Origin: Clostridia bacterium
GTDB taxonomy: Bacteria > Bacillota > Clostridia > Oscillospirales > CAG-272
Direction: 5' to 3'
Length of the DNA: 64,000 nucleotides
Assembly: GCA_017502875.1 (NCBI GenBank)
Contig: JAFVUF010000012.1
Coordinates: 168,952 to 232,951, forward strand
A program made the translations under genes and the position numbers. This document shows positions 1,139 through 64,000 of this stretch, piece after piece. Position 1 is the first letter of the stretch; every line of letters begins with the position of its first letter. The notes under the pieces were generated by a model. That model searched no databases, was not told the DNA's origin, and saw only the letters and a list, made by a program, of their open reading frames with translations.

Positions 1139-1972
1139 ATGTCAAAGGAATACAAAGGTCTTATTTTAGACGAAGAAAGAGCGCTTTACGGCGTTATGGG
1201 TGCGATCGTGTGCGACTGTCTGTTCGCCGGTGAGGCTGACGGCGAATCCGCCTTAAAGGAAACAAGCGGACTTAAAATCGAAAATTGTGAGTTTGGTCTG
1301 CGTTACCCGATGTGGCATATGAGCGACTCAACCGTTTCCGACTGTAAACTCACCGAAGCCTGCCGCGCGGCTCTCTGGTACTGCGATAATCTACATATCA
1401 AGAGCTCCCGTCTTGGCGGCATCAAGGCGTTACGTGAATGCAGTCGGGTAAGCGTTTCCGATAGCGAGGCTTTTTCAACGGAGCTTGACTGGTTCTGCAA
1501 GGATATCTCGATTACGGGTTGCGCTTTTGCGGGCGAATACCCCTTCTTAATGACCGTCGGACTGAAAATGAACAACTCAACCCTCAACGGAAAATACAGC
1601 TTTCAATACGTCGAAAACGCCGAGATAACAAATTGCGACCTCAACACAAAGGACGCCTTCTGGCACGCCAAAAACGTTACCGTAACGGACTGTACCGTAA
1701 GGGGCGAGTACCTCGGCTGGTACTCCGAGAACCTCACCTTTATCCGCTGCAAAATCATCGGCACTCAGCCGCTTTGCTACTGCAAGAACCTGACGCTTAT
1801 CGACTGCGAGATGATAGACTGCGACCTATCGTTTGAGAGAAGCTATGTCAAAGCAAGCGTTACGGGCGCGATTGAAAGCGTAAAAAACCCGATTTCGGGT
1901 GAGATAATCGCTGATAAAATCGGCGAAATCATACTTGATATTCCGAGCGAGTGCGAGATAAGGATAAGGTAA
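1139..1972 (+). CDS. DUF3737 family beta-helix repeat protein
   Basis: 277-aa ORF with RBS AAGGAA; N-terminal LILDEERALYG..LKETSGLKIENCEF..YPMWH pattern as in DUF3737 proteins. Confidence 0.6.
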   Translation: MSKEYKGLILDEERALYGVMGAIVCDCLFAGEADGESALKETSGLKIENCEFGLRYPMWHMSDSTVSDCKLTEACRAALWYCDNLHIKSSRLGGIKALRECSRVSVSDSEAFSTELDWFCKDISITGCAFAGEYPFLMTVGLKMNNSTLNGKYSFQYVENAEITNCDLNTKDAFWHAKNVTVTDCTVRGEYLGWYSENLTFIRCKIIGTQPLCYCKNLTLIDCEMIDCDLSFERSYVKASVTGAIESVKNPISGEIIADKIGEIILDIPSECEIRIR

Positions 1973-2750: not shown

Positions 2751-3243
2751 AATAAACGCTCTTCATTTTCTGCTCCTCGTAGGGCTTATCGCGGAAATCG
2801 GTCTTAACGGCGGCAATCTTGTCAACCGTCTCGATTCCCTCGACAACCGCGCCGAAGCCCGCGTACTGTCCGTCAAGGAATGTAGCGTCGGCGTGGCAGA
2901 TAAAGAACTGACTCGAAGCGCTGTCGGGAATCTGTGTACGCGCCATCGAAATCACACCTCTCTTGTGAGAAAGTGTGTTATTTACGCCGTTTATCTTAAA
3001 CTCACCCTTAATGGTCTTTTTAGAGCCGCCCATTCCCGTTCCCGTCGGGTCGCCGCCCTGAATCATAAAGCCCGCGATAACACGGTGAAAGATTATACCG
3101 TCGTAATAGCTCTCGGAAACGAGCCTTTTGAAGTTTTCAACGGTTATGGGTGCGATGTCGGGGTAAAGCTCAACGACAATTTTGTCGCCGCTTTCCATTT
3201 CTATCGCAACGAAATTCGTTACCTCATCGGTTCTTGTAAACAT
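2740..3243 (-). CDS. ppiB: Cyclophilin-type peptidyl-prolyl cis-trans isomerase
   Basis: 167-aa ORF; FHRVIAGFMIQGGDPTGTG cyclophilin signature. Confidence 0.9.
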   Translation of the reverse strand: MFTRTDEVTNFVAIEMESGDKIVVELYPDIAPITVENFKRLVSESYYDGIIFHRVIAGFMIQGGDPTGTGMGGSKKTIKGEFKINGVNNTLSHKRGVISMARTQIPDSASSQFFICHADATFLDGQYAGFGAVVEGIETVDKIAAVKTDFRDKPYEEQKMKSVYFVK

Positions 3244-3333: not shown

Positions 3334-3670
3334 GTGCCGATTGGCGCAATGACTTTTTCTTTGGGAAGAAGCAGAGCCCAAAGAAAAAGTAACAAAAAGA
3401 AAGGCTCGTTTGGGATATTTCGCTCTCTGCGGAGAGCGAGGAGGGCTACTCGCCCGTCCACCTCGCAAGCTTTTTGAAAAAAGCTTGGCAAAAACTTCTA
3501 AATACTATGAACTTCTGTTTAAGTCTTAGCGTAGCGAAGCGAACCTCGACTTAGCGACCTTCGACGTGAAACGCCCAGATTAGACGGTCGCCTTTTTGCC
3601 TCCAGGCGCTTGCCTGGCGCCGCCATTTGCCCACGGGGGGCGTCCCCGGTCGCCGCAGGTCGTTACCTGC
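3334..3670 (+). repeat. Family-A composite hairpin repeat A2 (near full length, reference copy)
   Basis: GTGCCGATTGGCGCA; GACTTTTTCTTTGGG..CCCAAAGAAAAAGT; CGCTCTCTGCGGAGAGCG; CAAGCTTTTTGAAAAAAGCTTGGCAAAAACTTCT; GCGAACCTCGACTTAGCG; CCAGGCGCTTGCCTGG; GCCGCAGGTCGTTACCTGC abutting the stop at 3671. Confidence 0.9.
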
Positions 3671-8077: not shown

Positions 8078-8310
8078 TCGAGCGCCGCTAAGTCGAGGTT
8101 CGCTACGCTACGCTAAGACTTAAACAGAAGTTCATAGTATTTAGAAGTTTTTGCCAAGCTTTTTTCAAAAAGCTTGCGCCGTCAAGACCGCGTAGGTCTT
8201 GTCGTCCGTCGCAACGGACGAAATACTCTTATCGACCTTTTCTTTTTGTTACTTTTTCTTTGGGGTCTGCTTCTGACCAAAGAAAAAGTTATCGCTCCGC
8301 AGGCGCGACC
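8078..8310 (-). repeat. Family-A repeat A3 (left inverted repeat of the 8349-8890 cassette)
   Basis: GCTAAGTCGAGGTTCGC..AGAAGTTTTTGCCAAGCTTTTTTCAAAAAGCTTG..GTCGTCCGTCGCAACGGACGA..CTTTGGGGTCTGCTTCTGACCAAAG..ATCGCTCCGCAGGCGCGACC. Confidence 0.85.
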
Positions 8311-8894: not shown

Positions 8895-9064
8895 GGCTCG
8901 CACCTTCGGAGCGATAACTTTTTCTTTGGTCAGAAGAAGACCCCAAAGAAAAAGTTACAAAAAGAAAAGGTCGAAGGGAGAGTTTCGCTCTCTGCGGAGA
9001 GCGAGGAGGGCTACTCGCCCGTCCACCTCGCAAGCTTTTTGAAAAAAGCTTGGCAAAAACTTCT
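8895..9064 (+). repeat. Family-A repeat A4 (right inverted repeat of the cassette)
   Basis: GGCTCGCACCTTCGGAGCGATAACTTTTTCTTTGGTCAGAAGAAGACCCCAAAGAAAAAGT..CAAGCTTTTTGAAAAAAGCTTGGCAAAAACTTCT; first ~80 nt nearly identical to the reverse complement of the A3 inner end. Confidence 0.85.
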
Positions 9065-9116
9065 CTCTATCAAATACGCCGCTTTATTAACAAAATGTAA
9101 ATTTACCCACCCCCTA

Positions 9117-9145
9117 TTGACAAAGCGGTTTTAATATGCTATACT
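9117..9145 (+). promoter_or_regulatory. Sigma-A-type promoter of rplJ-rplL
   Basis: TTGACA, 17-nt spacer, TATACT. Confidence 0.6.
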
Positions 9146-9149
9146 AATC

Positions 9150-9334
9150 AAGTCAAACAAACCAAAGACAGTAGGTTTAAGTAATAATTCAGCTATGCCG
9201 AATTTCCTACCGAGGCGAAAAGACACGGACAAAATAGCATAATTTTTCGTTATGCCCAAGGTACGTATATTTTTCAGTTCTCGGTCGCCGAAATCGGTTA
9301 TCGGGATTTTTTATTTGCCTACGAAAAATCTGTT
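9150..9334 (+). promoter_or_regulatory. Probable L10 (rplJ) ribosomal-protein leader
   Basis: ~185-nt structured untranslated leader between promoter and rplJ, ending in a hairpin plus TTTTTT; assignment is by position, I cannot verify the covariance model by eye. Confidence 0.4.
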
Positions 9335-18296: not shown

Positions 18297-18899
18297 TTAG
18301 TCTATCTCACCTATCGCATAGGTTATTTCGCTCGCGGAAAAGCCCGCGTTTGAAAGCGAACGCATTATCTGCTCCTTGGTCTTGCCAAGCGCTCTCATTT
18401 TTTCAGCGGCGCGCGCGCAATTCTCCCTAAAATCTATCTCGCTTAAATCAAGAGCCTCGACGGTTTCCCTTGAAATGCCCTTTGAGGCGAGATAGGCGAA
18501 AATTTTGCGTCTGCCGTTAAGCTTAGCGGCAAGCTTTTCGGCGGCGTTTTGAGCCAGACGGATATCGTTTATATACCCAAAGCCCTTGAGATAATCAACG
18601 GCGTCGTCCGTTTCATCGCGCCCGTAACCGCGAATTCTCATTTTTTCACGAAGTCCGCGCTCGGTATATGCGCTTCTTGCGACAAGCGACATAGCGTATT
18701 CTCTTGGTGGGCGCCGACCAGCAGCGGCAGAAGCTCCCGGTCGACGTATAGAGTCGCCATCGTCCTCTACGTCCCGTTCAATCGCACCCGGCAGGGACCG
18801 CCCTGCAGCGGTAAAGGCTCCCGCCCGGTGCACAGTTCCATCTGTTAAACGCTCAGCCCTTTTTCTGTTTTCATCAGGCTCACCAAGTTTTTTTCGCAT
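18297..18899 (-). CDS. recX: Recombination regulator RecX
   Basis: 200 aa; downstream of recA; RecX three-helix repeats (YTERGLREKM.., DDAVDYLKGFGYINDIRLA.., RRKIFAYLASKGIS..); N-terminal part holds an atypical GC-rich segment. Confidence 0.75.
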   Translation of the reverse strand: MRKKLGEPDENRKRAERLTDGTVHRAGAFTAAGRSLPGAIERDVEDDGDSIRRPGASAAAGRRPPREYAMSLVARSAYTERGLREKMRIRGYGRDETDDAVDYLKGFGYINDIRLAQNAAEKLAAKLNGRRKIFAYLASKGISRETVEALDLSEIDFRENCARAAEKMRALGKTKEQIMRSLSNAGFSASEITYAIGEID

Positions 18900-18925: not shown

Positions 18926-19477
18926 TGTCGTGCCGACAGCACGATGACTTTTTCTTTTGGAAGAAGCAGAGCCATTTAACCTCGAATTCGCTCTGCGACA
19001 AACAGTAAGCCGCAGCTTTGCTTCGCATAGACGCAAATTCTGGCAGATGACTGAGATTAAGTGTAAATTCAAGTAACAAAAAGAAAGGCTCGGTAAAAGC
19101 ATGTCGTCCGTTACGACGGACGACAAGACCTACGCGGTCTTGACTGCGCAAGCTTTTTGAAAAAAGCTTGGCAAAAACTTCTAAATACTATGAACTTCTG
19201 TTTAAGTCTTAGCGTAGCGTAGCGAACCTCGACTTAGCGGCGCTTGAAATGCTCGACGTTCTCAAAAGCACGCGCCGCCATTTGCCCCCGGGCGCGCGCC
19301 CGGTGAAAAAGGTGGGCGAAAACTTTTTTAACACTGTGAACTTCTGTTTAAGCCTTAGCATAGCGTATCGAACCCCGACTTAGCGACCTTCGACGTGAAA
19401 CGCCCAGATTAAACGGTCGCCTTTTTGCCTCCAGGCGCTCGCCTGGCGCCGCAGTTTCGCCGCAGGTCGTTACCTGC
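18926..19477 (+). repeat. Family-A composite A5 (about two elements; first hairpin arm replaced by a 97-nt segment)
   Basis: All A modules in order, ending GCCGCAGGTCGTTACCTGC at 19459-19477, directly abutting the recA stop (19478). Confidence 0.9.
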
Positions 19478-21341: not shown

Positions 21342-23882
21342 TTATTCCTTAGTTTCGTCATTTGAGGGTGCGATTGAAGCTTCGTTTTCCTCACTTAGCG
21401 GCTGCTCGTCAGAGGTGTCATCGCCGCGACCGACGTTGGCAACCGCGCTGACCTTACCCTCTCCCGTCCTCATAACGATAACTCCGCTTGCGGTTCTGCT
21501 GTACTCGGATATATCGCGAACGTGGGTGCGTATGGTAATTCCGTTGTCGGAAATGATAACTATATCGTCCTCGTCCTCAACCGCCGTTATCGCCGCAAGC
21601 TTACCGGTCTTGTCGCTGAGTCCGTGAACTCTTACGCCCTTACCGCCTCTGTTAGTCGTTCTGAAATCGTCAAAGCCGCTTCTCTTTCCAAAGCCGTTCT
21701 CGGTCATCGTGAGAAGCTTCTTCGTTTCGTCAACCAGCACGCAGCCGACTACGTAGTCGCCCTCGCCAAGTCTTATACCGCGGACTCCGCGAGCGCCTCT
21801 GCCCATTACTCTGGCGTTGTTCTCGTCAAAGCGGACGGCGTTACCGTCGTGGCTCGCTATTACGATAGCGTCCTGACCTGAGGTGTGGCGAACGTAAACC
21901 AGCTCGTCGTCCTCGTCAAGATTAATCGCCTTCTTACCCTTCTTGCGCTGGAACGCGAACTCGGAAAGCGCCGTTCTCTTGACGGTTCCCTTCTTTGTAA
22001 CCATAAGCAGATACTCGTCGTCATTGTACGACTCGTCGCTTACAGATATCATCGAGGTTATCTTCTCGCCCTTTTCAATCTCAATTACATTTACGGCGTT
22101 GATTCCCTTAGCGATTCTGCTCGCCTCAGGCACCTTGTACGCTCTTATCGTGAATACCTTGCCAAGACTTGTGAACATCATAAGGTCGGAGTGCGTATCG
22201 CACGCGATAACCGTCTCAACGAAGTCCTCTTCCTTGGTCGTAATTCCCTTTACGCCCTTGCCGCCTCTTGCCTGAGCGTTATACGCCTCGGCAGACATAC
22301 GCTTTAAGTAGCCGCTGTGCGTCATCGTGATAACGCAGGTGTGGCGGTCGATAAGGTCCTCGTCGTCAAGGTCGGCGTCGAAGCTTATCTCCGTTCTTCT
22401 CGGGTCGGCAAACTTGTTCTTTATCTCGGTTATCTCGTCCTTTATTATCTGCTTTATCTTGTCCATGCTCGAAAGCTTGTCCGTTATGTCAAAGATTACC
22501 GCTTCAAGACGAGCAAGTCTTTCCTCTATCTTTGCCCTTTCAAGTCCCGTCAGCTTTCCAAGCGTCATCTCGACTATCGCCTGAGCCTGCGGCTCTGTAA
22601 GTCCGTAAATATCGCAGAGCTTTGCCTTTGCGTCGGGAATGCTGTCGGCGCCCTTGATAAGCGCGATAATGTCGTCTATATTATCGGAAGCTATTTTCAG
22701 TCCCTCTAAAATGTGCGCTTCCTTTTTCGCCTTTTCAAGCTCATATTTAAGACGGCGGACCGTAATGTTCTCCTGATGCTCAATATAGTGATTAAGCATA
22801 GCCTTGAGTCCGAGAACTCTCGGCACGTTGTCCACCAGCGCCAGCATATTAGCGGCGAAGGTGTCTTCAAGACGGGTGTACTTGTAAAGCTGGTTTAAAA
22901 GCACATGTCCGTTTACGTCGCGGCGGTACTCGATAACGATACGCAGACCGTCCTTGCCCGACTCATCGCGGACGTCGGTTATTCCGTCTACCTTCTTGTC
23001 CTTTTTGTCCTTCTTGTCCTTGCTCTCGTTTGCGCAGTTACATATTCCCTCGACAAGCGAGACCTTGTTCACCTGATAAGGTATTTCTGTAACGATTATG
23101 CGGTGGTTCTCCTCGTCAACCGTTGCTCTGGCTCTTACCTTGATGTGCCCCTTACCCGTCTCGTAGGCGTTACGTACTCCGGAAAGTCCGCAGATTATAG
23201 CGCCCGTCGGGAAGTCGGGAGCCTTGATGAACTGCATAAGGTCGTCGGTTGTAGCGTCGGGGTTGTCCATTAAATAGATAACTCCGTCTATTATCTCGCC
23301 TAAGTTGTGGGTTGGAATATTCGTCGCCATACCGACAGCGATTCCTATTGAGCCGTTAACCAGCAGGTTCGGGAAACGCGCGGGAAGAACAACAGGCTCT
23401 TTGAGCTTGTTGTCGAAGTTCGGGGTGAAGTCTACGACGTCCTTTTCGATGTCCGTAAGCATATGGTCGGCAAGCTTGCTCATTCTCGCCTCGGTGTAAC
23501 GGTAAGCGGCAGCGCTGTCTCCGTCAATGTTACCGAAGTTTCCGTGTCCGTCAACAAGCGGATAGCGGAGCGAGAAATCCTGCGCCATTCTTACCATCGT
23601 GTCGTAAACCGCCGTGTCTCCGTGAGGGTGATAGCGGCCAAGCACGTTACCTACCGTGGTCGCTGACTTGCGGAACGGCTTGTCGTACGTAAGGTGGTCC
23701 TCGTACATAGCGTAAAGTATGCGGCGGTGTACGGGCTTGAAGCCGTCGCGTACGTCAGGCAGAGCTCTGGACATTATTACACTCATCGCGTAGTTGATGA
23801 AGGATGTCTTTACCTCCTGTCCCATGTTTACCGGTACTATCTTTTGTTCCTTAAATTCGATATCGTCCTGTTTCTTTTCCAT
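21342..23882 (-). CDS. gyrA: DNA gyrase subunit A
   Basis: 846 aa; active-site region [14 protein letters not shown]-like [11 protein letters not shown]-terminal beta-pinwheel repeats. Confidence 0.97.
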
Positions 23883-28543: not shown

Positions 28544-29131
28544 GTGCCTGTTGGCACAAGCTTTTTGAAAAAAGCTTGACCAAAACTTCTCTTACGGGCT
28601 GCCGCCCAACACTTAACAAACACTTACTCTGTTTAAAATCTTTACAAGGAAGCCGTAGGCTTTAACTTAGCGGCGCTCGAAATGCTCAACGTTCTCAAAA
28701 GTACGCGCCGCCAATTCGCCAACGGGGGCGTCCCCGGTCGCCGCAGGCCGTTGCCTGCCGTCGCCATTTGCCTCCAGGCGCTCGCCTGGCGCAATGACTT
28801 TTTCTTTGGGAAGAAGCAGAGCCCAAAGAAAAAGTAACAAAAAGAAAGGCTCGTTTGGGATATTTCGCTCTCTGCGGAGAGCGACAAGGCTCCGCGCCTT
28901 GACTGCGCCGCCTTTTGAAAAAGGTGGGCGAAAACTTCTAAGCATTGTGAACTTCTGTGCAAACCTTAGTGTAGCGAAGCGAACCTCGACTTAGCGGCGC
29001 TCGAAATGTTCGACGTTCTCAAAACTACACGCCGCCATTTGCCTCCGGGCGCTTGCCTGGCGCCGCCATTTGCCTACAGGCGCTTGCCTGGCGATTGCCA
29101 TTTGCCTACAGGCGCTCGCCTGCCGATTGCC
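28544..29131 (+). repeat. Family-A composite array A6 (at least two elements plus extra CCAGGCG hairpin units)
   Basis: GTGCCTGTTGGCACAAGCTTTTTGAAAAAAGCTTG..; GCAGGCCGTTGCCTGC variant hairpin; second full module series; three tandem GCCATTTGCCT(C/A)C(A/G)GGCGCT(T/C)GCCTGGCG units; overlaps the degV 3' end. Confidence 0.9.
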
Positions 29132-31502: not shown

Positions 31503-34500
31503 ATGAAGAGCAAAAAAAGTGTCAAAAAACCAAATGGCGCGCGAGCTTCCTCCAAATCGGGAGCGAAAAGACGCGTTGCCTTGAATAAAAGCGGCAGAAC
31601 CTCGATACCGAAACAAAAGCTCTCTGACAAGCGCAAGAAATCAATATTCTCCGCTATAACGCCCTTTATTCTGTTTGCGGTGTCGCTTCTGCTTGAAACC
31701 TGCTTTCTGCTGCCGGAGAAGTCAGGCGGCGCGGGAATACTTGTCCACGACCTTTTCTTCGGGCTTTTCGGCTCGGTTTCGCACGTGATAGCGATAGGCT
31801 TACTGCTTATCTCATTCTTCTACAAGGATTTGAGCGAGCGCGGAGCTTTGCGCTATAAGCTCGTGCTTTTTGCCGTTCTCGCAGCCGTACTCACCTCCGC
31901 TAACACCTTGGCGGCGCAGAACGGCCTAAAAGACGCCGCGTTCTCTTTAAATACATTTTGGCAGACGGGAACGCTCGCTGAAAGCGGCGGAGTTTTCGGG
32001 GGAGTACTTGGCTTCCTGTTCTCAAAATTATTCGGCGGCATAGCCGCCACCGTGATAACCGTTATCGTCTCAGTAGCGCTGGCAAGCCTTTGCTTTGGAA
32101 AGACCAGGCTCGGCGTTTGGCAAGTATTCGTCAGGGATAAAAACGGCGAAAGCGCTATGCGCCCGCAGCAGCATACCGCGCCCGCAATGCCCGAAAGTGC
32201 CCCCGTCGTAGCAAACGCCGGCGCCCCTCAGATAACGGAGATAACCGTTCCGAGAAGAATAGACACCCTTCTTTCTAATGATATCACAGAAAGCGAGCCG
32301 TCCGCGCCGCAGCTTTCCGAGCCTGAGCAGCTTATCCCAGAGCTTGTCGGCGGAGAGGCGGAAAACGCGCCCGAATATGCCGACGGCGTGCAGTCGGACG
32401 GTCAACTTACCGACCTTGACGATTTCGACGACAGCCTCGGCGAGGGAGACGGACTTCGTTCAAGCTATCGCCCCGCGGACTTAATGGAGGATTTCGGCTT
32501 CCGAGCCGAGCAGACGAAAAAAACGGAAAAGCAGGATATTTACAGCGAGGAGCCGAAGCCTGCGCCCGCAAGGCCTATTGAAGTGCCGAGAACAGCGCCC
32601 GCAGCGCCCAAAAAGCAGGAAAGCCCCGAAGCTCCAAGAGGATATTCACCGTTTGCGACCATTATGTCCAAGGAGGAGTTTTTTGGCGAAAGAGACGCCA
32701 AAAAAACCTACGATACCCCTGAAAATACAGCCGCCCCGTCCGTTAAGACAGTGGCTTATTCCCCGTTTTCCGACCCGATTGCAAGTATGAACGCGCCTAA
32801 GCGCGATGTAACCGACCTTCCTCCCCAGAGCTATATAGCCGCGGGTCAGGAAAAAATATGGGAGGATATGCGCGAGCAGGCTCGGATTATCGAAAATGAG
32901 CATAATGCCGCCGCAAAGGCAGCCGAGGAGACGGAAAACGAGCCTGTTTTCTCAAAAGCCGCACTGTCGTTCAACGAATTCAGTCATAACGACGGCACCG
33001 GTCGTAGCGACGACACCGCTTATGAGCCACATTTCTGTGCAAAAAATGATGTTTCAAGCGTATCCGGTCGTAGCGACGGCACCGATAATTACGGTATTTC
33101 CGCTAAGTTTTCAGCTATTGAGGATAACCAAAATAGCTTTTCACCCGTACCCACCAAGGACGAGCTTTATTCAAGTGATCCGATGGCAGACTTCGCCCCC
33201 GCCCAAAACGAAAAGCCGAGCTTTTCCTCGGCGTTCCCCGAAAGACACGAGCCTGTTCAGTCAGCGCCCGTATTCACTAATGAGCCTAAGCCGACGCCCA
33301 CTTATACTGAGTCGGCGCCCGCCCAGCCTAAAAATCCAATAATTCCACCTGCCCAACCGAAAATTTCCGTTACGAGCGCACCCGTAACACCCGAAAGGGC
33401 CGTTCCCGTAATGCCTGCGGAAAACACCCATTCCGCGTTTGACGACGATATAACGGCACCCGAGCAGGAGGACGAAATCGCCCGTCCCGTAGCCGAGCAA
33501 GAGCCGGAGCGCGACCCAAGAGTTATAAATCCGTTCAGCCGATACACCAAGCTCCGCTATCCGAAATACGTAAAGCCGCCGACGTCCCTTCTCGACGAGG
33601 CGGATAACACAAAAAAGATATCCGAGGAAGAAATCCACGCGGTAATGCGGAAGATACTCGACAAATTCGAATCCTTCCACGTTGACGTGTCGATTACCGG
33701 TTACAGCGCCGGCCCGTCAATTACTCGCTATGAGGTTACCCCCGGACCGGGCGTAAAATACAAGCAGGTAACGGGACTTGCCGAGGATATAGGACTTGCC
33801 CTGCAATCCGACACTATAAAGGGCGAGGTGCGTATAGTTACGGTTCCGGGTAAGCCCGTAATCGGTATCGAGGTGCCAAACAGCGTGGTCTCCAAGGTAT
33901 CGCTGCGTAGCCTTGTCGAAAATCCCGACTTTCAGAAGGCTAAGAGCAAGATAACCGTATGCGTAGGCCTTACGGTTTCGGGTAAGCCTGTCTATATGAA
34001 TATAGACGATATGCCCCACGTTCTCGTCGCGGGTCAGACAAAGTCGGGTAAATCTGTCGCTATCAACGCTATGATTATGAGTATAATCTACCGCGCCTCT
34101 CCCGACGAGGTTCAGTTCATTCTCGTTGACCCAAAGCAAGTAGAGCTGAGCATATACAACGATATTCCGCATATGGTAATGCCCGTTATAGACGACCCAA
34201 AGCGCGCGGCGGGAGCGCTGCAATGGGCAGTCGCGGAGATGGAGCGCCGTTATACCCTCATCAAAAACGCGCGTGTGCGCGACCGTGAGGAGTATTACAG
34301 AATGAAGGACCAGAACCCCGACTTTGAGTATATGCCTCAGATAATAATTATTATCGACGAGCTTGCCGACCTTATGCTTCAAGTGCGTGAGCACGTTGAG
34401 GAGCCTATCAACCGACTTGCCGCTAAGGCAAGAGCCTGCGGAATCAACCTCGTTATCGGTACGCAAAGACCGTCAACGGATATCGTTACAGGTCTGATTA

Positions 34501-39528: not shown

Positions 39529-40866
39529 ATGCAAAACATTACCGAATACGTAAACGGACTCTGCGCCGAGGTCAAAACGGCGCAAAAGGCTCTTGCGCTC
39601 GCAAAAGCAAGCGAAAAAAACGGCGCGCTCCTGAAAATCGCCGAGGCGCTCAGAGAAAGCAAAGCCGAGATACTTAAAGCAAATGAGCAGGACATATCCT
39701 CAGCCTCGGAAAACGGCGTTCCGAAAACAATGATTGACCGACTGACCTTAACCGAGGCGAGAATTGACGCCATTGCTGACTCGCTTCTTGACGTGGCGGC
39801 TCTGCCCGACCCTTGCGGAAACGGCTCTGTTTCAGTCCGTCCAAACGGACTGAAAATAACAAAAACGAGTGTTCCGCTAGGCGTTATCGGTATCATTTAC
39901 GAGGCTCGCCCCAACGTTACGGTTGACGCCGCGGCGCTCTGCCTCAAAAGCGGAAACGGCGCCGTTTTGAAGGGCGGCAAGGAGGCGCTTAACACCAACC
40001 GCGCGCTTATGAGCGTTATGAAAAGGGCGCTTAATCGCACCCGTATTCCGCCAAACGCCATTTCTCTCATCGACAGCGCTGAACGCACGGCAACCGCGGC
40101 GCTTATGAACGCCAGAGGTTTGATTGACGTGCTTATCCCCAGAGGCGGCAAGGGTCTTATCAAGGCGGTAGTGGAAAACGCCGCCGTTCCGGTCATTGAG
40201 ACGGGAGCCGGCAACTGCCATATCTATATCGACGAAAGCGCCGATCTAAAAAAAGCGCTCGCTGTCGCGGTAAACGCAAAAATGTCTCGTCCCTCGGTCT
40301 GCAACGCCGTTGAGACTATGCTCGTTCACGAAGCCGTAGCGGAGAAATTTTTGCCTATGTTCGCAAGGGAAACCGAGGGCAAGCTTGAAATTCGCGGCTG
40401 CAAAAAGACCGTTTCAATTATTAGAGGTTCGATGGAAGTATCGTACAGGGCACCCACATTAGCTGAAAATTCACTACAAACGCCGTCTGTAGCGGTGTCG
40501 CCGTTGCGACAGGGTGCGATAGAAGCCACCGAGCAGGACTACGACACCGAGTTTAACGACTACGTTTTGGCGGTCAGGGTTGTTTGCTCGCTTGACGAGG
40601 CTATCGAGCATATCAGACGCTATTCAACGGGACACAGCGAGGCAATAATTACCGAAAATATTGCTTGTGCGCGTAAGTTCACCGAAAGCATAGACTGCGC
40701 GGCGGTCTACGTCAACGCCTCCACCCGCTTTACCGACGGAGGTGAATTCGGCTTTGGCGCCGAGATAGGCATTTCCACCCAGAAGCTTCACGCCCGCGGA
40801 CCTATGGGTCTAAGCGAGCTTACCACCGTCAAATATATCGTCGAGGGCGACGGTCAAATACGGTGA
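39529..40866 (+). CDS. proA: Glutamate-5-semialdehyde dehydrogenase (gamma-glutamyl phosphate reductase)
   Basis: 445 aa; ProA-like throughout (catalytic region SRPSVCNAVETMLVH); carries a ~29-aa extra segment between ..EIRGC.. and ATEQDYDTEF. Confidence 0.92.
   Translation: MQNITEYVNGLCAEVKTAQKALALAKASEKNGALLKIAEALRESKAEILKANEQDISSASENGVPKTMIDRLTLTEARIDAIADSLLDVAALPDPCGNGSVSVRPNGLKITKTSVPLGVIGIIYEARPNVTVDAAALCLKSGNGAVLKGGKEALNTNRALMSVMKRALNRTRIPPNAISLIDSAERTATAALMNARGLIDVLIPRGGKGLIKAVVENAAVPVIETGAGNCHIYIDESADLKKALAVAVNAKMSRPSVCNAVETMLVHEAVAEKFLPMFARETEGKLEIRGCKKTVSIIRGSMEVSYRAPTLAENSLQTPSVAVSPLRQGAIEATEQDYDTEFNDYVLAVRVVCSLDEAIEHIRRYSTGHSEAIITENIACARKFTESIDCAAVYVNASTRFTDGGEFGFGAEIGISTQKLHARGPMGLSELTTVKYIVEGDGQIR
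40426..40519 (-). repeat. Family-C intragenic element, reverse orientation, in-frame inside proA
   Basis: Reverse complement reads TCGCACCC TGTCGCAACGGCGACACCGCTACAGACGGCGTTTGTAGTGAATTTTCAGCTAATG..CCATCGAACC, colinear with the mnmG/ftsK copies over the first ~65 nt. Confidence 0.75.
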
Positions 40867-41070: not shown

Positions 41071-41724
41071 ATGTCAAAAATTAAAATCATCTACAAAAGC
41101 AGCGACATAGCCGTCGTTGAAAAGCCCTACGGAACGCTTTCTCAGCGCGACGCCAAGGGCGAGGACGGGCTTGTCGAGATGCTTTCAAGGCAATTAAATA
41201 CCGCGGTCTACCCCGTTCACCGTCTTGACCGCAACGTCGGCGGAGTTATGGTGTTCGCTCTTACAAAAAGGGCGGCGGCTCAGCTTTCCGTCGAGAACGC
41301 CTTTGAAAAAAACTATCTTGCCGTAGCTACGGGCGTTTCTGACGGATTTGCCGATACGGGTGAGATGACCGACTATCTCTTTAAGGACGGCGCCAAGGGT
41401 AAAAGCTTCGTCGTAAAGGGTGAACGCAAGGGCGCAAAGCTCGCCCGTCTTGCCTATGAGATACTTTCCACCGTCGAAACAGAGCAGGGCAGACTGACGC
41501 TTTTCAAAATACGGCTCTTTACGGGCAGAACTCACCAGATAAGAGTACAACTCGCTTCAAGAGGTATGCCGCTTGTCGGAGACGGAAAATACGGCAGCAG
41601 GATAAAGAGCGAAAGCATTGCGCTTTGGTCTAATAAAATCAAGTTGAACGCACCCGTAAACGCCGAAAAATCGGTTTTTGAAGCTCTGCCGAGCGAAAAC
41701 GAGTGGTTTAAGCTATTTATTTGA
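41071..41724 (+). CDS. RluA-family pseudouridine synthase
   Basis: HRLDRNVGGVMVFA catalytic motif, GRTHQIRVQLA; start at ATG 41071 (MSKIKI). Confidence 0.85.
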   Translation: MSKIKIIYKSSDIAVVEKPYGTLSQRDAKGEDGLVEMLSRQLNTAVYPVHRLDRNVGGVMVFALTKRAAAQLSVENAFEKNYLAVATGVSDGFADTGEMTDYLFKDGAKGKSFVVKGERKGAKLARLAYEILSTVETEQGRLTLFKIRLFTGRTHQIRVQLASRGMPLVGDGKYGSRIKSESIALWSNKIKLNAPVNAEKSVFEALPSENEWFKLFI

Positions 41725-48790: not shown

Positions 48791-50788
48791 ATGAACGAAT
48801 TTGTAGCAGAGAAGGCGGATATCGCCGTAATAGGAGCAGGCCACGCGGGCGTGGAGGCGGCGCTTGCGAGCGCGAGAATGGGTTTAAAGACCATACTTTT
48901 CACGTTAAGCCTTGACCAGATAGCGAACATGCCCTGCAACCCGTCGATAGGCGGCACAGGCAAGGGACACCTCGTTTACGAGATTGACGCGCTGGGCGGA
49001 GAAATGGGCAGAGCAGCCGACCTTGTAACCATGCAGAGCCGCACCCTGAACCTCGGAAAAGGCCCTGCGGTCCACAGCAAGCGTATCCAGGCAGACCGTA
49101 TGCTCTACCACTCGGTAATGAAGAAAACGCTTGAGGACTGTGAAAACCTGCGGATTATTCAGTCCGAGGTAACCGATTTAGAGGTAACTGACGGCGCTCT
49201 TTCTGCGGTCATCACCCGTCTCAAAGCCAAATACGAGGTCAAGGCGGCGATAATCTGCTCCGGCACATATCTGCGCGGCAGAGTTATAATCGGCGACACG
49301 GCGTACGCCTCCGGGCCTGACGGCTCTCTCCCCTCAGTCGGCTTAAACGAGCGCCTTAGCGAGCTTGGAATTAAGCTTCTCCGCTTTAAGACGGGAACTC
49401 CGCCCCGTATCCACCGCCGTTCAATCGACTTTTCAAGGCTTGAGCGTCAGGACGGCGAGACGGACGTTACGCCATATTCTTACCGTTCCGTCGCACCCGG
49501 TCGTAGCGACGACACCGATAATTACGATGTTTCCACTGATTTTTCAGCTATTGAGGACATTCAAAAAAACGTTTCAATCGCACCCACAAATGAGATTTCT
49601 AATAAAAATCAACCTAATCTCTTCACTCGCCAGACTCCTTGCTACATCGCATATACAAACGAGCGCACCCACGAGATAATCAGACAAAACCTCCACCGTT
49701 CTCCCCTTTACAGCGGAATGATAGAGGGAACCGGACCCCGCTACTGTCCGAGCATTGAGGACAAGGTCGTCCGCTTCTCCGACAAGCCCCGACACCAGCT
49801 TTTTGCCGAGCCGATGGGCTACGACACCGACGAAATCTATCTGCAAGGCTTCAGCTCCTCGCTTCCCGCCGAGGTTCAGCTTGAAATGCTGCACTCCATT
49901 GAGGGCTTCGAAAACGCCGAGGTAATGCGTTTCGCCTACGCCATAGAGTACGACTGCATAGACCCCTCGCAGCTTCTCCCTACGCTCGAATTTAAGGCCA
50001 TCTCAGGTCTATACGGCGCAGGACAGTTCAACGGCACCTCAGGCTACGAGGAAGCGGCGGCGCAGGGACTTATCGCGGGCATAAACGCCGCCTATAAGAT
50101 AAAGGGCGAGCCTCCACTTACTCTCAGCCGTGATAGCAGCTACATCGGAACGCTTATCGACGACATCGTTACCAAGGGCACAAACGAGCCGTACAGAATA
50201 ATGACCTCGCGCTCCGAATACAGACTGCTGCTGCGCCAGAGCAACGCGGCGTTTCGCCTGATGGACGAGGGCAGACGCAGCGGACTGATAAGCAAAGAGC
50301 GCTACGCAAGACTAATTGAGCTAAAAGAGCAGATAAACGCCGAGATTAAGCGTGTTAAAGCCAAAACCGTCGCCCCAAGCGAGAGCTTAAACGCGATCCT
50401 CACCGCCTGCGGCACGACGCCGATAAGCACAGGAGTAAGGCTCAGCGAGCTTATAAAGCGCCCACAGCTCTCATACGAGGCGCTCAGAGAGATTGACGAC
50501 ACATACCTATCCCTTGATAAAACGGTGCGTACAGAGGCTGAAATAATGCTAAAATACGACGGCTACATCGCGCGTCAAATAGAGGACGCGCAGAAAATGG
50601 AAAAGCTTGAAGCAAAGCTTCTTCCGACCGATATCGATTACGAGAAGATAACCGGACTTCGCCTTGAAGCAAGACAGAAGCTGAGTAAGGTTCGCCCGAT
50701 GAATATAGGTCAGGCGAGCCGAATAAGCGGAGTTTCGCCTGCGGACATATCGGTACTAATGATATATTTAAAGGTAAATAAGCTTTAA
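48791..50788 (+). CDS. mnmG: tRNA uridine 5-carboxymethylaminomethyl modification enzyme MnmG (GidA)
   Basis: FAD site VIGAGHAGVEAA, GPRYCPSIEDK; start trimmed to MNEFVAEK (ATG 48791); carries an extra segment between TPYSY and TPCYIAYTNE. Confidence 0.95.
   Translation: MNEFVAEKADIAVIGAGHAGVEAALASARMGLKTILFTLSLDQIANMPCNPSIGGTGKGHLVYEIDALGGEMGRAADLVTMQSRTLNLGKGPAVHSKRIQADRMLYHSVMKKTLEDCENLRIIQSEVTDLEVTDGALSAVITRLKAKYEVKAAIICSGTYLRGRVIIGDTAYASGPDGSLPSVGLNERLSELGIKLLRFKTGTPPRIHRRSIDFSRLERQDGETDVTPYSYRSVAPGRSDDTDNYDVSTDFSAIEDIQKNVSIAPTNEISNKNQPNLFTRQTPCYIAYTNERTHEIIRQNLHRSPLYSGMIEGTGPRYCPSIEDKVVRFSDKPRHQLFAEPMGYDTDEIYLQGFSSSLPAEVQLEMLHSIEGFENAEVMRFAYAIEYDCIDPSQLLPTLEFKAISGLYGAGQFNGTSGYEEAAAQGLIAGINAAYKIKGEPPLTLSRDSSYIGTLIDDIVTKGTNEPYRIMTSRSEYRLLLRQSNAAFRLMDEGRRSGLISKERYARLIELKEQINAEIKRVKAKTVAPSESLNAILTACGTTPISTGVRLSELIKRPQLSYEALREIDDTYLSLDKTVRTEAEIMLKYDGYIARQIEDAQKMEKLEAKLLPTDIDYEKITGLRLEARQKLSKVRPMNIGQASRISGVSPADISVLMIYLKVNKL
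49491..49585 (+). repeat. Family-C intragenic element, in-frame inside mnmG (87 nt plus an 8-nt direct repeat)
   Basis: TCGCACCC [GGTCGTAGCGACGACACCGATAATTACGATGTTTCCACTGATTTTTCAGCTATTGAGGACATTCAAAAAAACGTTTCAA TCGCACCC]; bracketed part = 87 nt = 29 codons. Confidence 0.85.
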
Positions 50789-57632: not shown

Positions 57633-58832
57633 ATGAAATATCAAAATTATAGCGGAGAAAAATCCGGCACTGTCGGCAGAACGCAGGAAAAGGTTGATAT
57701 GAAGCAGCGCCCGAGGGCAGACGTTAACAGGCAATACGGCGGGGCGCGCAATGAGACGGAGGAAAACGGTCTTGCCACTCCGACTCTGCGAGGAGGTTTT
57801 ATTTCGGACGGCGACGTTTTCGGCACGGGTGAGGACAAAGGCGTAAATAAGGACGCTGAAAACACCGAAAAGGCGCTGAATAACGAACCCGTAATCACCG
57901 AAACAGGCGTTACGGGCGCGGAGAACGGTCTCACGATAGATAAAAACGGAACAGTTACCGCAAAACACGGTAAAAAAACGCAAATTTCGGATTGCGGGTG
58001 CGATAAAACGGGCAAAAGCAGTAGCTCCGACAATGGAGCCGCGCAAAACGTCCTTGGCGACTCGGATTTTTCAGACTACGGAGATTTTGAGCCGAGCGTA
58101 TCGAGCGCCGAGTGGCACACGCTCAGCCAAGGCGTAGACGACGGGGACGGTACAGTGGAAGAGGAGGACGAAAGCAAAACGAGCGCGCCCCAAAACCGTG
58201 AAAACGATGAAAAGCACGACAAAGCTGTTGTAACAAAAAGCGGCGAGAAGCTGATAAAAACCATCGTTATCGCGGGTCAGATAGAGGGACACTCTCAGCT
58301 GCCGCAGGGACAGAAGGCGACGAGGTACGAGGAGCTGATACCGCAGCTGGTTGAAATAGAGGAGAGCGAGGAGATAGGCGGACTGCTTATCATTTTAAAC
58401 ACCGTAGGCGGCGACGTTGAAGCGGGACTTGCGCTCTCCGAGCTTATCGTGGGTATGAAAAAGCCCACCGCTTCGCTTGTGCTTGGCGGCGGACATTCTA
58501 TCGGCGTGCCCCTGGCGGTCTCAACAAACAGGTCGTTTATCGTGCCGAGCGCCACAATGACGCTCCACCCGGTTAGAATAACGGGAATGATTCTCGGCGC
58601 TCCTCAGACCTACGTTTACCTTAACAAAATGCAGGAGAGGATTACCCGTTTCACCTGCAACCATTGCAATATGAGCCCTAAGCGCTTTAACGAGCTTATG
58701 CTCAGCCGCGACGAAATGTCCACTGACCTCGGCTCCGTCCTTGACGGACATCAGGCGGTAGAGGAGGGGCTTATCGACTCCCTCGGCTCTCTGAGCGACG
58801 CAATTGAGTTTTTGAAAAGAGCTATGGGTTGA
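57633..58832 (+). CDS. ClpP/TepA-family (Clp-protease-fold) protein with ~200-aa N-terminal extension
   Basis: C-terminal ~190 aa resemble TepA/ClpP-like proteins (LIILNTVGGDVEAGLALSELI.., MTLHPVR); N-terminal half is Gly/Asp/Glu-rich low complexity. Confidence 0.6.
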   Translation: MKYQNYSGEKSGTVGRTQEKVDMKQRPRADVNRQYGGARNETEENGLATPTLRGGFISDGDVFGTGEDKGVNKDAENTEKALNNEPVITETGVTGAENGLTIDKNGTVTAKHGKKTQISDCGCDKTGKSSSSDNGAAQNVLGDSDFSDYGDFEPSVSSAEWHTLSQGVDDGDGTVEEEDESKTSAPQNRENDEKHDKAVVTKSGEKLIKTIVIAGQIEGHSQLPQGQKATRYEELIPQLVEIEESEEIGGLLIILNTVGGDVEAGLALSELIVGMKKPTASLVLGGGHSIGVPLAVSTNRSFIVPSATMTLHPVRITGMILGAPQTYVYLNKMQERITRFTCNHCNMSPKRFNELMLSRDEMSTDLGSVLDGHQAVEEGLIDSLGSLSDAIEFLKRAMG

Positions 58833-59707: not shown

Positions 59708-59766
59708 TTCAATATCACAAATCACGGGTCGCTTCGTTTAATACGGGGCGGCCCGATTTCTTTATA

Positions 59767-60269
59767 AAGCTTGGCAAAAACTTCTGAACACTGTGAACTT
59801 CTGTTTAAGCCTTAGCATAGCGAAGCGAACCTCGTCTTAGCGGCGCTCGACGTGAAACGCCCAGATTAAACGGTCGACTTTTTGCCTCCAGGCGCTTGCC
59901 TGGCGCCGCCAATTCGCCGCAGGTCGTTACCTGACGCCATTTGCTTCCGGGCGCTCGCCCGGCGCAATGACTTTTTCTTTGGGAAAAAGCAGAGCCCAAA
60001 GAAAAAGTAACAAAAAGAAAGGCTCGTTTGGGATATTTCGCTCTCTGCGGAGAGCGAGGAGGGCTACTCGCCCGTCCACCTCGCAAGCTTTTTGAAAAAA
60101 GCTTGGCAAAAACTTCTGAACACAGTGAACTACTGTGTAAACCTTAGCATAGCGAAGCGAACCTCGACTTAGCGGCGCTCGAAATGCTCGACGTTCTCAA
60201 AACTACACGCCGCCATTTGCCTCCAGGCGCTTGCCTGGCGCCGCCAATTCGCCGCAGGTCGTTACCTGC
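59767..60269 (+). repeat. Family-A composite A8 (two tandem elements), ending at the mnmE stop
   Basis: Two successive series ..AAGCTTGGCAAAAACTTCT..GCGAACCTCG(T/A)CTTAGCGGCGCTCGA..CCAGGCGCTTGCCTGG..GCCGCAGGTCGTTACCTG(A/C); the last C of the second is the G of the mnmE TAG stop. Confidence 0.9.
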
Positions 60270-61687
60270 TATTTGCCAACGCAGAAATTGTGGAAGATTT
60301 CATTTGTTATCCTGTCAGTAACCGTTCTGCCGTCAAGTAAGCCTATCGCGGCAAGCGCAGCTTCAAGGTCAAGTCCGCAAACGTCCGCGCCCATTCCACA
60401 CTCAAAAGCCGCTATTGCGCGTTTGAGCGCACCCATAGCCTCGCAAACCGCGGAATTCTGCCTTGCGTTAGCTATCACCGCCACACTTCCGTAGTCAACG
60501 TAGCCCTCGCAAAAGAACGCTTCGGCAATGCCTTTAAGCTCCTCAACTCCCTGCCCCGTCTGAGCGCTTATCTTACAGAGCTTCACCCTGTTTTCATCAA
60601 ACGGACGGTTACGGGTTGCGTCATCAAGCGCCTTTTTAACGTCATCAGTATCAAAACGCGGCTCCGTATCGCACTTGTTCAGCGCCAATATCACGCTTTT
60701 TCCGCTAATCACCGCCTCGGCGGCTAAGGAAATAATCTCGCCGTCCTCTTGGTCAAGCGGACGTGAGGTGTCAAGCACAGCGATAATAAGCTCCGCCTCG
60801 TCAGCCTTGGCTCTGGCGCGCTCAATACCTATTTTTTCAACAACGTCGTCGCTTTCACGGATACCCGCAGTATCAAAAAGACGGAGCGTTATCCTGCCTG
60901 CGTTAACCTTCTCCTCAATAACGTCGCGCGTCGTACCCGCAACCGAGGTTACTATCGCCTTCTGCTCACCCGCAAGCGCGTTTAAGAGCGAGGACTTGCC
61001 CGTGTTTGGCTTGCCGACTATCGCCGTATAAACACCCTCGGAGACTGCCTTTCCCTGCTTGTAGGTTGCGGCGGTGGCGCTTAAAAGCCCGTAGATAGCC
61101 TCCATCTCTGCCTTAAAATCCGATTCACTGACCTCCGCTAAATCCTCCTCAGGATAGTCAAGCTTGACGTAAACGGACGAAAGAAGCTTAATCAGACGCT
61201 CGCTTATCTCATCGCACCTTTTTTTAAGCACCCCTGAGGCGTGCGAGGCGCAAAGACGGAGCTTTTCCTCATTTTCGGCGTCGATCAGACCTATTACCGC
61301 CTCAGCGCCCGAAAGGTCGATTTTTCCGTTCAGAAAAGCCCTCTGCGTAAACTCTCCGGGGCCCGCCTGCGTGGCGCCGAGGTCAAAAGCGGTCTTTAAA
61401 ACCCTCTCGGTAAGCAGTATTCCGCCGTGGCAGCTTATCTCAACGATGTCCTCGCCCGTGTACGACCTCGGAGCGCGGAAAACGGTAGCTATTCCGTCGT
61501 CAATGCGCTCGCCGCCGCTGATTATTTTTCCGTAAACGGCGCTGCCGCCCTCAATTTCCGAAAGAGCCGTCCCGCAGCCCGTAATAAACATTTTTTCAGC
61601 TACTCCGAGCGCGTTCTCGCCCGAAATTCTTATTACCGCTATTCCGCCTCTGCCAAAAGGCGTAGCTATCGCCGCTATCGTACTCAT
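60269..61687 (-). CDS. mnmE: tRNA modification GTPase MnmE (TrmE/ThdF)
   Basis: G-domain GKPNTGKSSLLN, DTAGIR; C-terminal FCVGK. Confidence 0.95.
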   Translation of the reverse strand: MSTIAAIATPFGRGGIAVIRISGENALGVAEKMFITGCGTALSEIEGGSAVYGKIISGGERIDDGIATVFRAPRSYTGEDIVEISCHGGILLTERVLKTAFDLGATQAGPGEFTQRAFLNGKIDLSGAEAVIGLIDAENEEKLRLCASHASGVLKKRCDEISERLIKLLSSVYVKLDYPEEDLAEVSESDFKAEMEAIYGLLSATAATYKQGKAVSEGVYTAIVGKPNTGKSSLLNALAGEQKAIVTSVAGTTRDVIEEKVNAGRITLRLFDTAGIRESDDVVEKIGIERARAKADEAELIIAVLDTSRPLDQEDGEIISLAAEAVISGKSVILALNKCDTEPRFDTDDVKKALDDATRNRPFDENRVKLCKISAQTGQGVEELKGIAEAFFCEGYVDYGSVAVIANARQNSAVCEAMGALKRAIAAFECGMGADVCGLDLEAALAAIGLLDGRTVTDRITNEIFHNFCVGK

Positions 61688-63746: not shown

Positions 63747-63794
63747 TTTGTTAAAATTCCTCTCTAATTGCTTCCGCAGAAGCTCATAATATTT

Positions 63795-64000
63795 AAAAGT
63801 TTTTGCCCACCTTTTTGCAGGCAACGGCCTGCGGCGAAATGGCGGCGCGTGCTTTTGAGAACGTCGAGCATTTCGAGCGCCGCTAAGTCGAGGTTCGCTT
63901 CGCTACGTTAAGATTTACACAGAAGTTCACTGTGTTCAGAAGTTTTTGCCAAGCTTTTTTCAAAAAGCTTGCGAGGTGGACGGGCGAGGAGCCCTCCTCG
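63795..64000 (-). repeat. Family-A repeat A9 (cut by window end)
   Basis: AAAAGTTTTTGCCCACCTTTTTGCAGGCAACGGCCTGCGGCG..CATTTCGAGCGCCGCTAAGTCGAGGTTCGC..AGAAGTTTTTGCCAAGCTTTTTTCAAAAAGCTTG.. Confidence 0.85.

Follow-up and report, generated by a model that had tools for sequence, protein, structure and literature searches.

How did the mnmG gene of an uncultured Clostridia bacterium come to carry, in frame and inside its conserved core, an 87-nt segment that recurs in other genes of the same genome? The gene (48791-50788, + strand; 665 aa counted from the ATG at 48791) lies in the 64,000-nt stretch of contig JAFVUF010000012.1 (GenBank assembly GCA_017502875.1) that was analyzed here; we call this whole stretch the window, and coordinates refer to it unless a locus of a relative (L020, L022 and so on) is named. 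The segment (GRSDDTDNYDVSTDFSAIEDIQKNVSIAP; 49499-49585, + strand; 29 codons) is one unit of a lineage-restricted dispersed repeat that sits in frame within its host genes. We infer that the repeat spread by microhomology-anchored copying at an abundant 13-nt motif and not by a transposase, and we put the probability of this reading at about 0.55.

The 87-nt unit in mnmG and its empty sites

The mnmG site of the window reads TAC CGT TCC GTC GCA CCC ^ GGT CGT AGC ... GTT TCA ATC GCA CCC ^ ACA AAT, with ^ marking the junctions. The unit begins with an 18-nt 5' sub-module (GGTCGTAGCGACGACACC, 49499-49516, + strand) and ends in TTCAATCGCACCC (49573-49585, + strand), and it is preceded by TTCCGTCGCACCC (49486-49498, + strand), which corresponds to the native CGT TCA ATC GCA CCC of orthologues with an empty site. 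An earlier reading of this DNA from the sequence alone (below, the sequence-only reading) had described an 8-nt flanking direct repeat; both copies of TCGCACCC are present (49491-49498 and 49578-49585), but the true repeat is 13 nt long (TTCCGTCGCACCC and TTCAATCGCACCC, 11/13 identical). The insertion was found in independent NCBI, ENA, JGI and Logan assemblies and is therefore no assembly artefact.

The MnmG loop from ...QDGE to PCY has 59 residues, versus 18-21 in the nearest empty-site orthologues. About 38 residues are thus extra, close to the roughly 35 estimated before, but the 87-nt unit supplies only 29 of them and about nine come from the adjoining rest of the loop (TNEISNKNQPNLFTRQ, 49586-49633, + strand), which exceeds that of empty-site orthologues by about nine codons and is extended even more in L020 and L022. 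This second lineage-specific expansion (NKNQPNLFTR in the window) has no counterpart at the other copies of the repeat; in L020 and L022 it adds as many as about 20 residues and contains direct repeats of its own (CTTTTCACT...CCTTTCACT).

Close relatives of MnmG and ProA keep empty sites, and this comparison of orthologous sequences shows the units in mnmG and proA to be secondary insertions rather than ancestral loops. The insert is missing from MnmG orthologues of 83-86% identity, whose length is 624-629 aa. Among the 120 best MnmG homologues, the long segment occurs only in the window protein, in P0002 (a 99% strain), in P0003 (676 aa) and in P0004 (719 aa), which speaks against a loop that all orthologues carry and bears out the insertion proposed from the sequence alone. 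The unit is absent in L024, L025 and L026, and L024 provides a precise empty site, CAC CGT TCA ATC GCA CCC ^ GTA ACC GAA, in a loop of ordinary length. At the same site L020 has one unit, L022 has two 87-nt units together with an array of the 18-nt sub-module, and L023 has solely a 21-nt mini-duplication.

ProA is 445 aa long in the window and in a 98% relative, and 412-423 aa long in other close homologues; one homologue of 444 aa has an N-terminal extension and no insert. The ProA alignment has a clean 29-residue gap at the insert. The empty proA site of L028 reads, on the strand of the element, GCTTCGATCGCACCC^GTAACC (TTCGATCGCACCC^GTAACC), and the window's unit lies exactly at the junction. 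In HMMER alignments, the match to MnmG and ProA sequences of solved structure is interrupted precisely where the inserts lie.

Copies of the repeat in other genes

A blastn search of the window with 49471-49620 as the query detected ftsK (33059-33160; 81% over 102 nt, E 4e-22) and, on the minus strand, proA (40454-40524; 75% over 71 nt, E 1e-9), with two weaker matches at 32998-33023 (E 4e-4) and 21358-21388 (E 1e-3). Without gaps across 87 nt, the mnmG unit is identical to the ftsK unit at 72/87 positions, exactly the hand count of the sequence-only reading, and to the reverse complement of the proA unit (40425-40511) at 55/87. The recurrence of the mnmG repeat, including its inverted copy in proA, therefore holds under alignment statistics. 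The pattern GGTCGTAGCGACGNCACCG has four matches versus 0.10 expected, and an nhmmer family profile scored the window's three copies at E 5e-32 to 4e-28, values that are partly circular since three of the five copies in the profile are the window's own.

The FtsK linker contains the long unit (33066-33152, + strand) in the same frame as in mnmG, and in tandem with it a 66-nt short unit (33000-33065, + strand) and an 18-nt stub, which is an extra diverged copy of the 5' sub-module (AGTCATAACGACGGCACC; 32982-32999, + strand). The proA unit is inverted (40425-40511, - strand; the + strand reads SMEVSYRAPTLAENSLQTPSVAVSPLRQG), and its flanking motif halves lie at 40512-40524 and 40425-40437. GyrA (a Pfam identification) owes most of its C-terminal tail to another short unit (21366-21431, - strand), which is followed by SNDETKE and the stop codon; this unit starts with GGTCGCGGCGATGACACC, ends with TTCAATCGCACCC and has the length of the ftsK short unit, and its 3' part scores E 0.012 with nhmmer. 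The recX gene may contain a degenerate relative (18777-18850, + strand, antisense to recX) in its 5' region or in an N-terminal extension; the assignment is uncertain. This candidate, within the RecX open reading frame (18297-18899, - strand), has the exact 13-mer TTCAATCGCACCC, a hairpin GCAGGG-ACCG-CCCTGC and then GGCTCCCGCCCGGT, a 14-nt block common to it and to an intergenic short form in L023.

Two forms make up the family, a long one of 84-87 nt (six units of 87 nt and one of 84 nt) and a short one of 66 nt, found at three independent places (ftsK, gyrA and the L023 intergenic copy). Both forms start with the 18-nt sub-module GGTCGYRRCGRCGACACC and end with TTCNATCGCACCC. All unit lengths and the sub-module are divisible by three, the used frame is free of stop codons, and the sense copies in mnmG, ftsK and gyrA share one reading frame (GGT CGT AGC = G R S). 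Within this genome the copies are 51-72/87 identical to each other.

The family was found in a few related uncultured Clostridia from ruminant-gut metagenome assemblies. The window shares its mnmG copy with three related lineages, the ftsK copy is common to the window and, in diverged form, L027, and the proA copy is specific to the source species. No further copies were detected in the ~17 kb that L030 and L033 add to the window. A scan with GGTCGTAGCGACGRCACCG of a genome-contig collection that lacks the source genome returned 19 single matches, all unrelated (mostly Actinomycetota, Proteobacteria and other metagenome-assembled genomes, MAGs). Two-anchor patterns gave 0 matches in two metagenome-contig scans of a collection that lacks even the JGI contigs carrying the unit, a viral-contig scan gave 0 matches, and a word-index protein search with a 43-aa peptide alignment gave no candidates. 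An exhaustive profile search of 1.84 billion cluster representatives detected the peptide in FtsK of the source species alone, apart from two repeat proteins that are spurious; this says nothing on host range because the representatives of the host families are without the insert.

A 13-nt motif at the insertion sites

The insertion point lies inside a 13-nt motif, ATCGCACCC^GTAA, whose 5' half then stands on both sides of the unit; the two halves are as similar in proA as in mnmG (11/13). The empty sites of mnmG (L024: TTCAATCGCACCC^GTAACC) and proA (L028) already contain the motif, and these two sites, in unrelated genes, match each other at 18/19 nt, so that the target is defined by the motif. 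Of the two origins first suggested for the flanking repeat, a target-site duplication does not fit as one of arbitrary sequence, given that the same 13-nt sequence flanks copies in different genes and pre-exists at their empty sites.

The motif ATCGCACCCGTAA, with up to two mismatches, has 24 matches in the window versus 1.5 +/- 1.2 in dinucleotide shuffles, and 23 matches inside genes versus 1.48 when codons are shuffled within genes. The genic matches (10 sense, 13 antisense) fall into four classes of frame and orientation. The motif is about 15-fold over-represented in the window and in related genomes, with a spacing of ~1 per 2.7 kb at up to two mismatches; its density in the clade is 1.6-6.7 per 10 kb, versus 3 matches in 146 kb of unrelated genomes. 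The extended consensus of 59 instances in 183 kb of the clade, ttc.ATCGCACCCGTAA.cg..gAAAc.....ttt, carries A/T tracts phased at ~10 nt. The orthologous proA site gains the motif at unchanged length (L028 versus L027). A literature search did not find ATCGCACCCGTAA as a described bacterial signal.

Other frequent coding 13-mers are only 4-7-fold enriched and are frame-locked. The idea that the motif is the most frequent coding word was rejected, as frame-locked codon-usage words reach similar raw counts in an unbiased k-mer ranking; only the enrichment ratio and the frame independence distinguish it from the k-mer background.

Examples of the motif are found at 409-421(-), 1860-1872(-), 3144-3156(-), 18615-18627(+), 33375-33387(+), 40034-40046(+), 41647-41659(+) and 57992-58004(-), and also in L022-L028, L030 and L033. 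It is almost confined to genes and is common to relatives at ~80% amino-acid identity. In the DUF3737 gene (1139-1972) two motif copies stand 33 nt apart, direct and in frame (1860-1905, - strand; ATCTCACCCGAAA ... ATCGCGCCCGTAA), which may represent another small motif-flanked insertion. The generalisation that many genes hold motif-flanked in-frame inserts was dropped, since only mnmG and this 33-nt pair fit it.

Slippage and conversion between copies

The 66-nt ftsK unit is absent in the JGI strain L029, which is 98.5% identical to the window, and the end-points of the indel fall within a 19-nt direct repeat, GGTCGTAGCGACGRCACCG. Tandem arrays of the 18-nt sub-module are present in L022, L023 and L027. 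These data show slippage: deletion or duplication between direct repeats alters the copy number from strain to strain.

Copies also exchange sequence. The window and strain L036 differ at 24 of the 1998 nt of mnmG, and four of these differences are packed into an 11-nt span of the 5' sub-module (GGTCGTAGCGACGAC here, AGTCGCAACGGCGAC in L036; permutation P ~0.0035 for the clustering). At each of the four the window has the base of the ftsK copy, and the outgroup L020 that of L036. The patch in the mnmG gene of the window is a short-patch ectopic conversion from ftsK to mnmG.

The orthologous units of the window (49499-49585) and L020 (L020:993-1079) are identical at 64/87 positions (74%), above the third codon positions of the host gene (59%). 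This lower divergence hints at constraint at the DNA level, homogenisation, or later exchange of the insert between species.

Anatomy and folding of the unit

The unit is not palindromic, and a 117-nt DNA fold gave z = -0.6 for the + strand and -0.3 for the - strand. Direct reading found no terminal inverted repeats, as the ends GGTCGTAGCGAC... and ...TTCAATCGCACCC are non-complementary. According to RNAalifold, only a 5-bp stem (GTCGY-NNCG-RCGAC) pairs in a conserved way; it belongs to the 5' sub-module and follows the junction directly. A 3' hairpin is not convincing, and the insertion 3' of ...CACCC is specific. A T:A to C:G change in the 5' stem, which looks compensatory, was rejected as evidence of structure, because the single conversion patch from ftsK to mnmG accounts for it. 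No Rfam family was found in a scan of the insert region that admitted E values up to 1.

Among the genes called on the fetched loci of the clade (~200 kb) we detected no transposase-type Pfam family (the genes of the window were not scanned systematically), no Y1 transposase or RAYT family, and no autonomous insertion sequence related to the unit. No reverse transcriptase was noted near the copies, with the same limit on the scan of the window genes, and the differences between the mnmG and ftsK copies are not adenine-specific, so that the unit does not look like the target of a diversity-generating retroelement.

The intergenic arrays of L023 are built from copies of the 18-nt sub-module, one unit each of 84 and 66 nt, and further modules, and the joints always read ...ACCC^G... 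In the same locus a gene with Mrr_cat and SWIM domains and a membrane-protein gene (L023:5731-8558) are inserted between mnmG and rsmG. Composite repeat arrays stand upstream and downstream of the Mrr gene in the same orientation, and one antisense frame is open along the whole length of the arrays. The mnmG-rsmG gap carries different cargo in L024 and L026.

The encoded peptide and its probable tolerance by the host proteins

The host genes mnmG, ftsK, proA and gyrA all remain open, and from the reading frames we infer that the inserts are translated as extra peptide. Codon comparisons show that this peptide evolves as if without constraint: substitutions between the mnmG and ftsK units are distributed 5/6/4 over codon positions 1/2/3, and identity between the window and L020 by codon position is 72/76/72% in the unit, versus 92/95/59% in the host gene.

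At the insert, where the alignment to the solved MnmG sequence breaks, AlphaFold2 predicted coil with pLDDT 23-32. The AlphaFold model of ProA is poor (pTM 0.54), with low confidence at the insert too, and was given little weight. In FtsK the copies precede the FtsK_alpha domain, within the linker, and in GyrA the copy follows the last blade of the beta-propeller domain (Pfam). The inserts thus probably occupy disordered loops, a linker or a tail, as far as the models indicate, where the host proteins would tolerate them. The sequence-only reading had concluded from the open genes that the inserts are either tolerated or removed after transcription; the genes are open and tolerance is predicted, but removal is unsupported, with no Rfam match and a segment too small for a self-splicing intron or an intein (intein motifs were not searched for).

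Origin of the insertions

Under the reading that we prefer, an existing copy would reach a new locus by microhomology-anchored copying without a dedicated transposase. Candidate routes are template switching during replication, annealing of ectopic single strands as in SPDIR, and synthesis-dependent strand annealing. SPDIR has been described as a process in which ectopic single strands integrate with microhomologies as anchors (bioRxiv 10.1101/2023.11.22.568220). The abundant 13-nt motif would serve as the anchor on both sides, the outcome would be exactly one repeat period between motif copies in either orientation, and selection would keep only the copies that are in frame and in tolerant regions of the protein. 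Motif-anchored copying is favoured because the insert is one period long, the motif is present before insertion and on both sides after it, both orientations and tandem arrays occur, a conversion patch was detected, and transposon features are lacking.

Several observations weigh against this reading. The 13-nt anchor is short for RecA-dependent recombination, and the proposed route would therefore be rare. Just four loci were found in ~81 kb of the source species, and the reading does not account for the abundance of the motif itself. The proA unit, the youngest insertion, is the most diverged, with only 58/87 positions identical to the best other copy, and its donor was not seen; other copies would therefore lie in unseen parts of the genome, or the DNA would have come from outside. 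Three further features fit a site-specific enzyme equally well, namely the constant unit lengths (87, 87, 87; 66, 66, 66) at independent loci, the conserved 5' sub-module with its 5-bp hairpin right after the junction, and the uniform joining of different L023 intergenic modules at ACCC^G.

The main alternative is accordingly a non-autonomous element moved in trans by a motif-specific enzyme, either a single-strand transposase of the HUH/Y1 type (IS200/IS605 or RAYT), whose insertions go 3' of a specific sequence, or a recombinase acting at ACCC^G; we consider it possible, though on the whole unlikely. The flanking motif halves would then be the target and the element's own right end, or a long sequence-specific duplication. 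Besides the three features just named, such an enzyme would suit the identical insertion point within the motif in mnmG and proA and the occurrence of both orientations. It is disfavoured by the lack of terminal inverted repeats and of a significant fold, by the conversion patch that explains the only apparent stem covariation, by the absence of candidate transposases among the genes called on the fetched clade loci (~200 kb), and by copies that are few and diverged. In addition, the similarity of the gyrA copy to mnmG runs on past the unit, at about 10/15 bases of the downstream mnmG flank, as if flanking DNA had been transferred with it, and a defined transposon would not be expected to do this.

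A more speculative proposal, to which we give a low probability, concerns the motif itself. ATCGCACCCGTAA could be an undescribed DNA-uptake or recombination signal of the clade, similar to the uptake signal sequence (USS), and the 66- and 87-nt units could be by-products of the patching of motif sites by microhomology. Motif-bearing DNA would be exchanged and patched into other motif sites, and this process would drive both the spread of the motif and the growth, in frame, of essential proteins.

Selection for a useful peptide, for instance a tag for interaction or localisation that several proteins gained as a functional module, is very improbable. The single frame used in mnmG, ftsK and gyrA would agree with such a module, but the inverted proA copy encodes an unrelated peptide, which rules out a shared peptide module. 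The equal substitution across codon positions, the predicted disorder of the region, the variation of copy number between 98.5%-identical strains and the restriction of the peptide to same-species FtsK among the cluster representatives argue against it as well.

Purely local slippage expansions of ancestral loops, with likeness between genes due to composition or chance, could account for the tandem units in ftsK and L022 and the 21-nt mini-duplication in L023 mnmG, but this explanation is refuted by the alignment statistics across loci (blastn and, with its partial circularity, the family profile) and by ungapped units of identical length, one of them inverted, and we give it almost no credence. 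An intervening sequence removed after transcription or translation can be practically dismissed: nothing beyond the continued function of the host genes suggests it, 87 nt or 29 residues are too small for a self-splicing intron or an intein (no search for intein motifs was made), neither an Rfam match nor a significant fold was found, and the length and frame suit direct translation.

Relation to known repeats and signals

The behaviour of the unit had been likened to that of Rickettsia palindromic elements (RPEs), which are palindromic repeats of ~105-150 nt in Rickettsia (Ogata et al. 2000, 2002, as summarised in PMC10969869 and PMC3184786). The likeness holds for a short dispersed repeat that lies in frame in unrelated conserved housekeeping genes, adds peptide at sites tolerated by the fold, and also occurs outside genes (in the relative L023). 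It fails for the anatomy, since the unit is 66-87 nt long, non-palindromic and without terminal inverted repeats or a stable hairpin. Further contrasts with RPEs are the conserved 13-nt motif, which stands in direct copies at both flanks and already occupies the target before insertion, the tandem arrays with an amplifiable 18-nt sub-module, the one antisense copy, and the host, an uncultured Clostridia lineage to judge by what its homologues are called.

Small repeats (ERIC, BOX, RUP, BRE) fused to open reading frames are known from several phyla (PMC3184786, PMC10969869), and in-frame fusions outside Rickettsia include the pneumococcal BOX and RUP elements of Firmicutes (PMC3184786). The phenomenon of in-frame repeat fusion is for this reason not new. 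With these repeats and with MITEs (miniature transposable elements with inverted repeats) the unit shares its non-coding size, its in-frame fusions or internal gene insertions and the possibility of comparing filled with empty sites. It differs from MITEs by lacking terminal inverted repeats, a short arbitrary target-site duplication, a stable RNA fold and, among the called genes of the clade loci, a related insertion sequence.

The unit further resembles minisatellites, or variable-number tandem repeats (VNTRs), in its length of tens of bases, its several loci, its strain-variable tandem number and its frame-compatible lengths. Head-to-tail units of strain-variable number, as in a coding minisatellite, are indeed seen, with L029 lacking the 66-nt unit and L022 having two 87-nt units. 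The mycobacterial interspersed repetitive units (MIRUs) are dispersed minisatellites of this kind, sited between genes of operons. The units described here differ from MIRUs by their place within conserved genes and by their anchoring on an abundant motif that is separate from them. The resemblance to SPDIR, a likeness only, lies in ectopic integration at microhomologies, in clustered substitutions such as the patch of four in 11 nt and in intragenomic micro-insertions; the described SPDIR events are rare idiosyncratic microindels and not a fixed-length recurring unit tied to an abundant motif.

Uptake sequences are known only in two proteobacterial families, as USS in Pasteurellaceae and as DNA uptake sequences (DUS) in Neisseriaceae (PMC1939737, PMC3458573). 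The 13-nt motif is like them in its length of at least 10 nt, its strong over-representation, its mostly genic location in both orientations and several frames, its presence in related species, its ~10-nt-phased A/T tracts and its length-neutral gain at orthologous sites, and unlike them in its lower density (~1 per 2.7 kb). In its statistics the motif resembles uptake sequences; so far this is a resemblance only.

Genomic context and significance

The window is the neighbourhood of a replication origin, with gyrA, likely gyrB, ftsK, mnmG, rsmG, parAB, serS, mnmE, jag and yidC, and dnaA and dnaN lie directly past its right end in L033. Gene blocks on both strands without a clear switch of GC skew suggest inversions around the origin. 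Besides the unit, the intergenic regions hold mosaic repeats of several families (44 direct families and 105 inverted pairs in a repeat search of the window), for instance at 802-1080, 3343-3650, 8078-8310, 8898-9129, 19071-19474, 28746-29125, 59757-60278 and 63777-64000. Among them are 31-nt hairpin modules in tandem (GCCGCCATTTGCCTCCAGGCGCTTGCCTGG) and palindromes that resemble terminators (CAAGCTTTTTGAAAAAAGCTTG), and L029 has these repeats at 80-96% identity. The only Rfam family above its gathering score in the window is the ribosomal protein L10 leader upstream of rplJ (9144-9322, + strand; RF00557, 47 bits).

The inserts will upset orthology-based length filters and MAG quality checks that use mnmG, gyrA and proA as marker genes. 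The series of empty sites, single unit, tandem arrays, strain-level indel and conversion patch provides a clean natural record for the origin of inserts. DNA of selfish or accidental origin within essential genes, a phenomenon best known in Rickettsia, is now seen with a different anatomy in a free-living lineage of gut Clostridia, where it can lengthen core proteins, apparently without breaking them. If the motif-anchored route is true, abundant short motifs would generally put protein loops at risk of expansion and at the same time supply the raw material for it. The 13-nt motif, as a candidate uptake or recombination signal outside the two known proteobacterial families, is a more novel lead than the unit itself.

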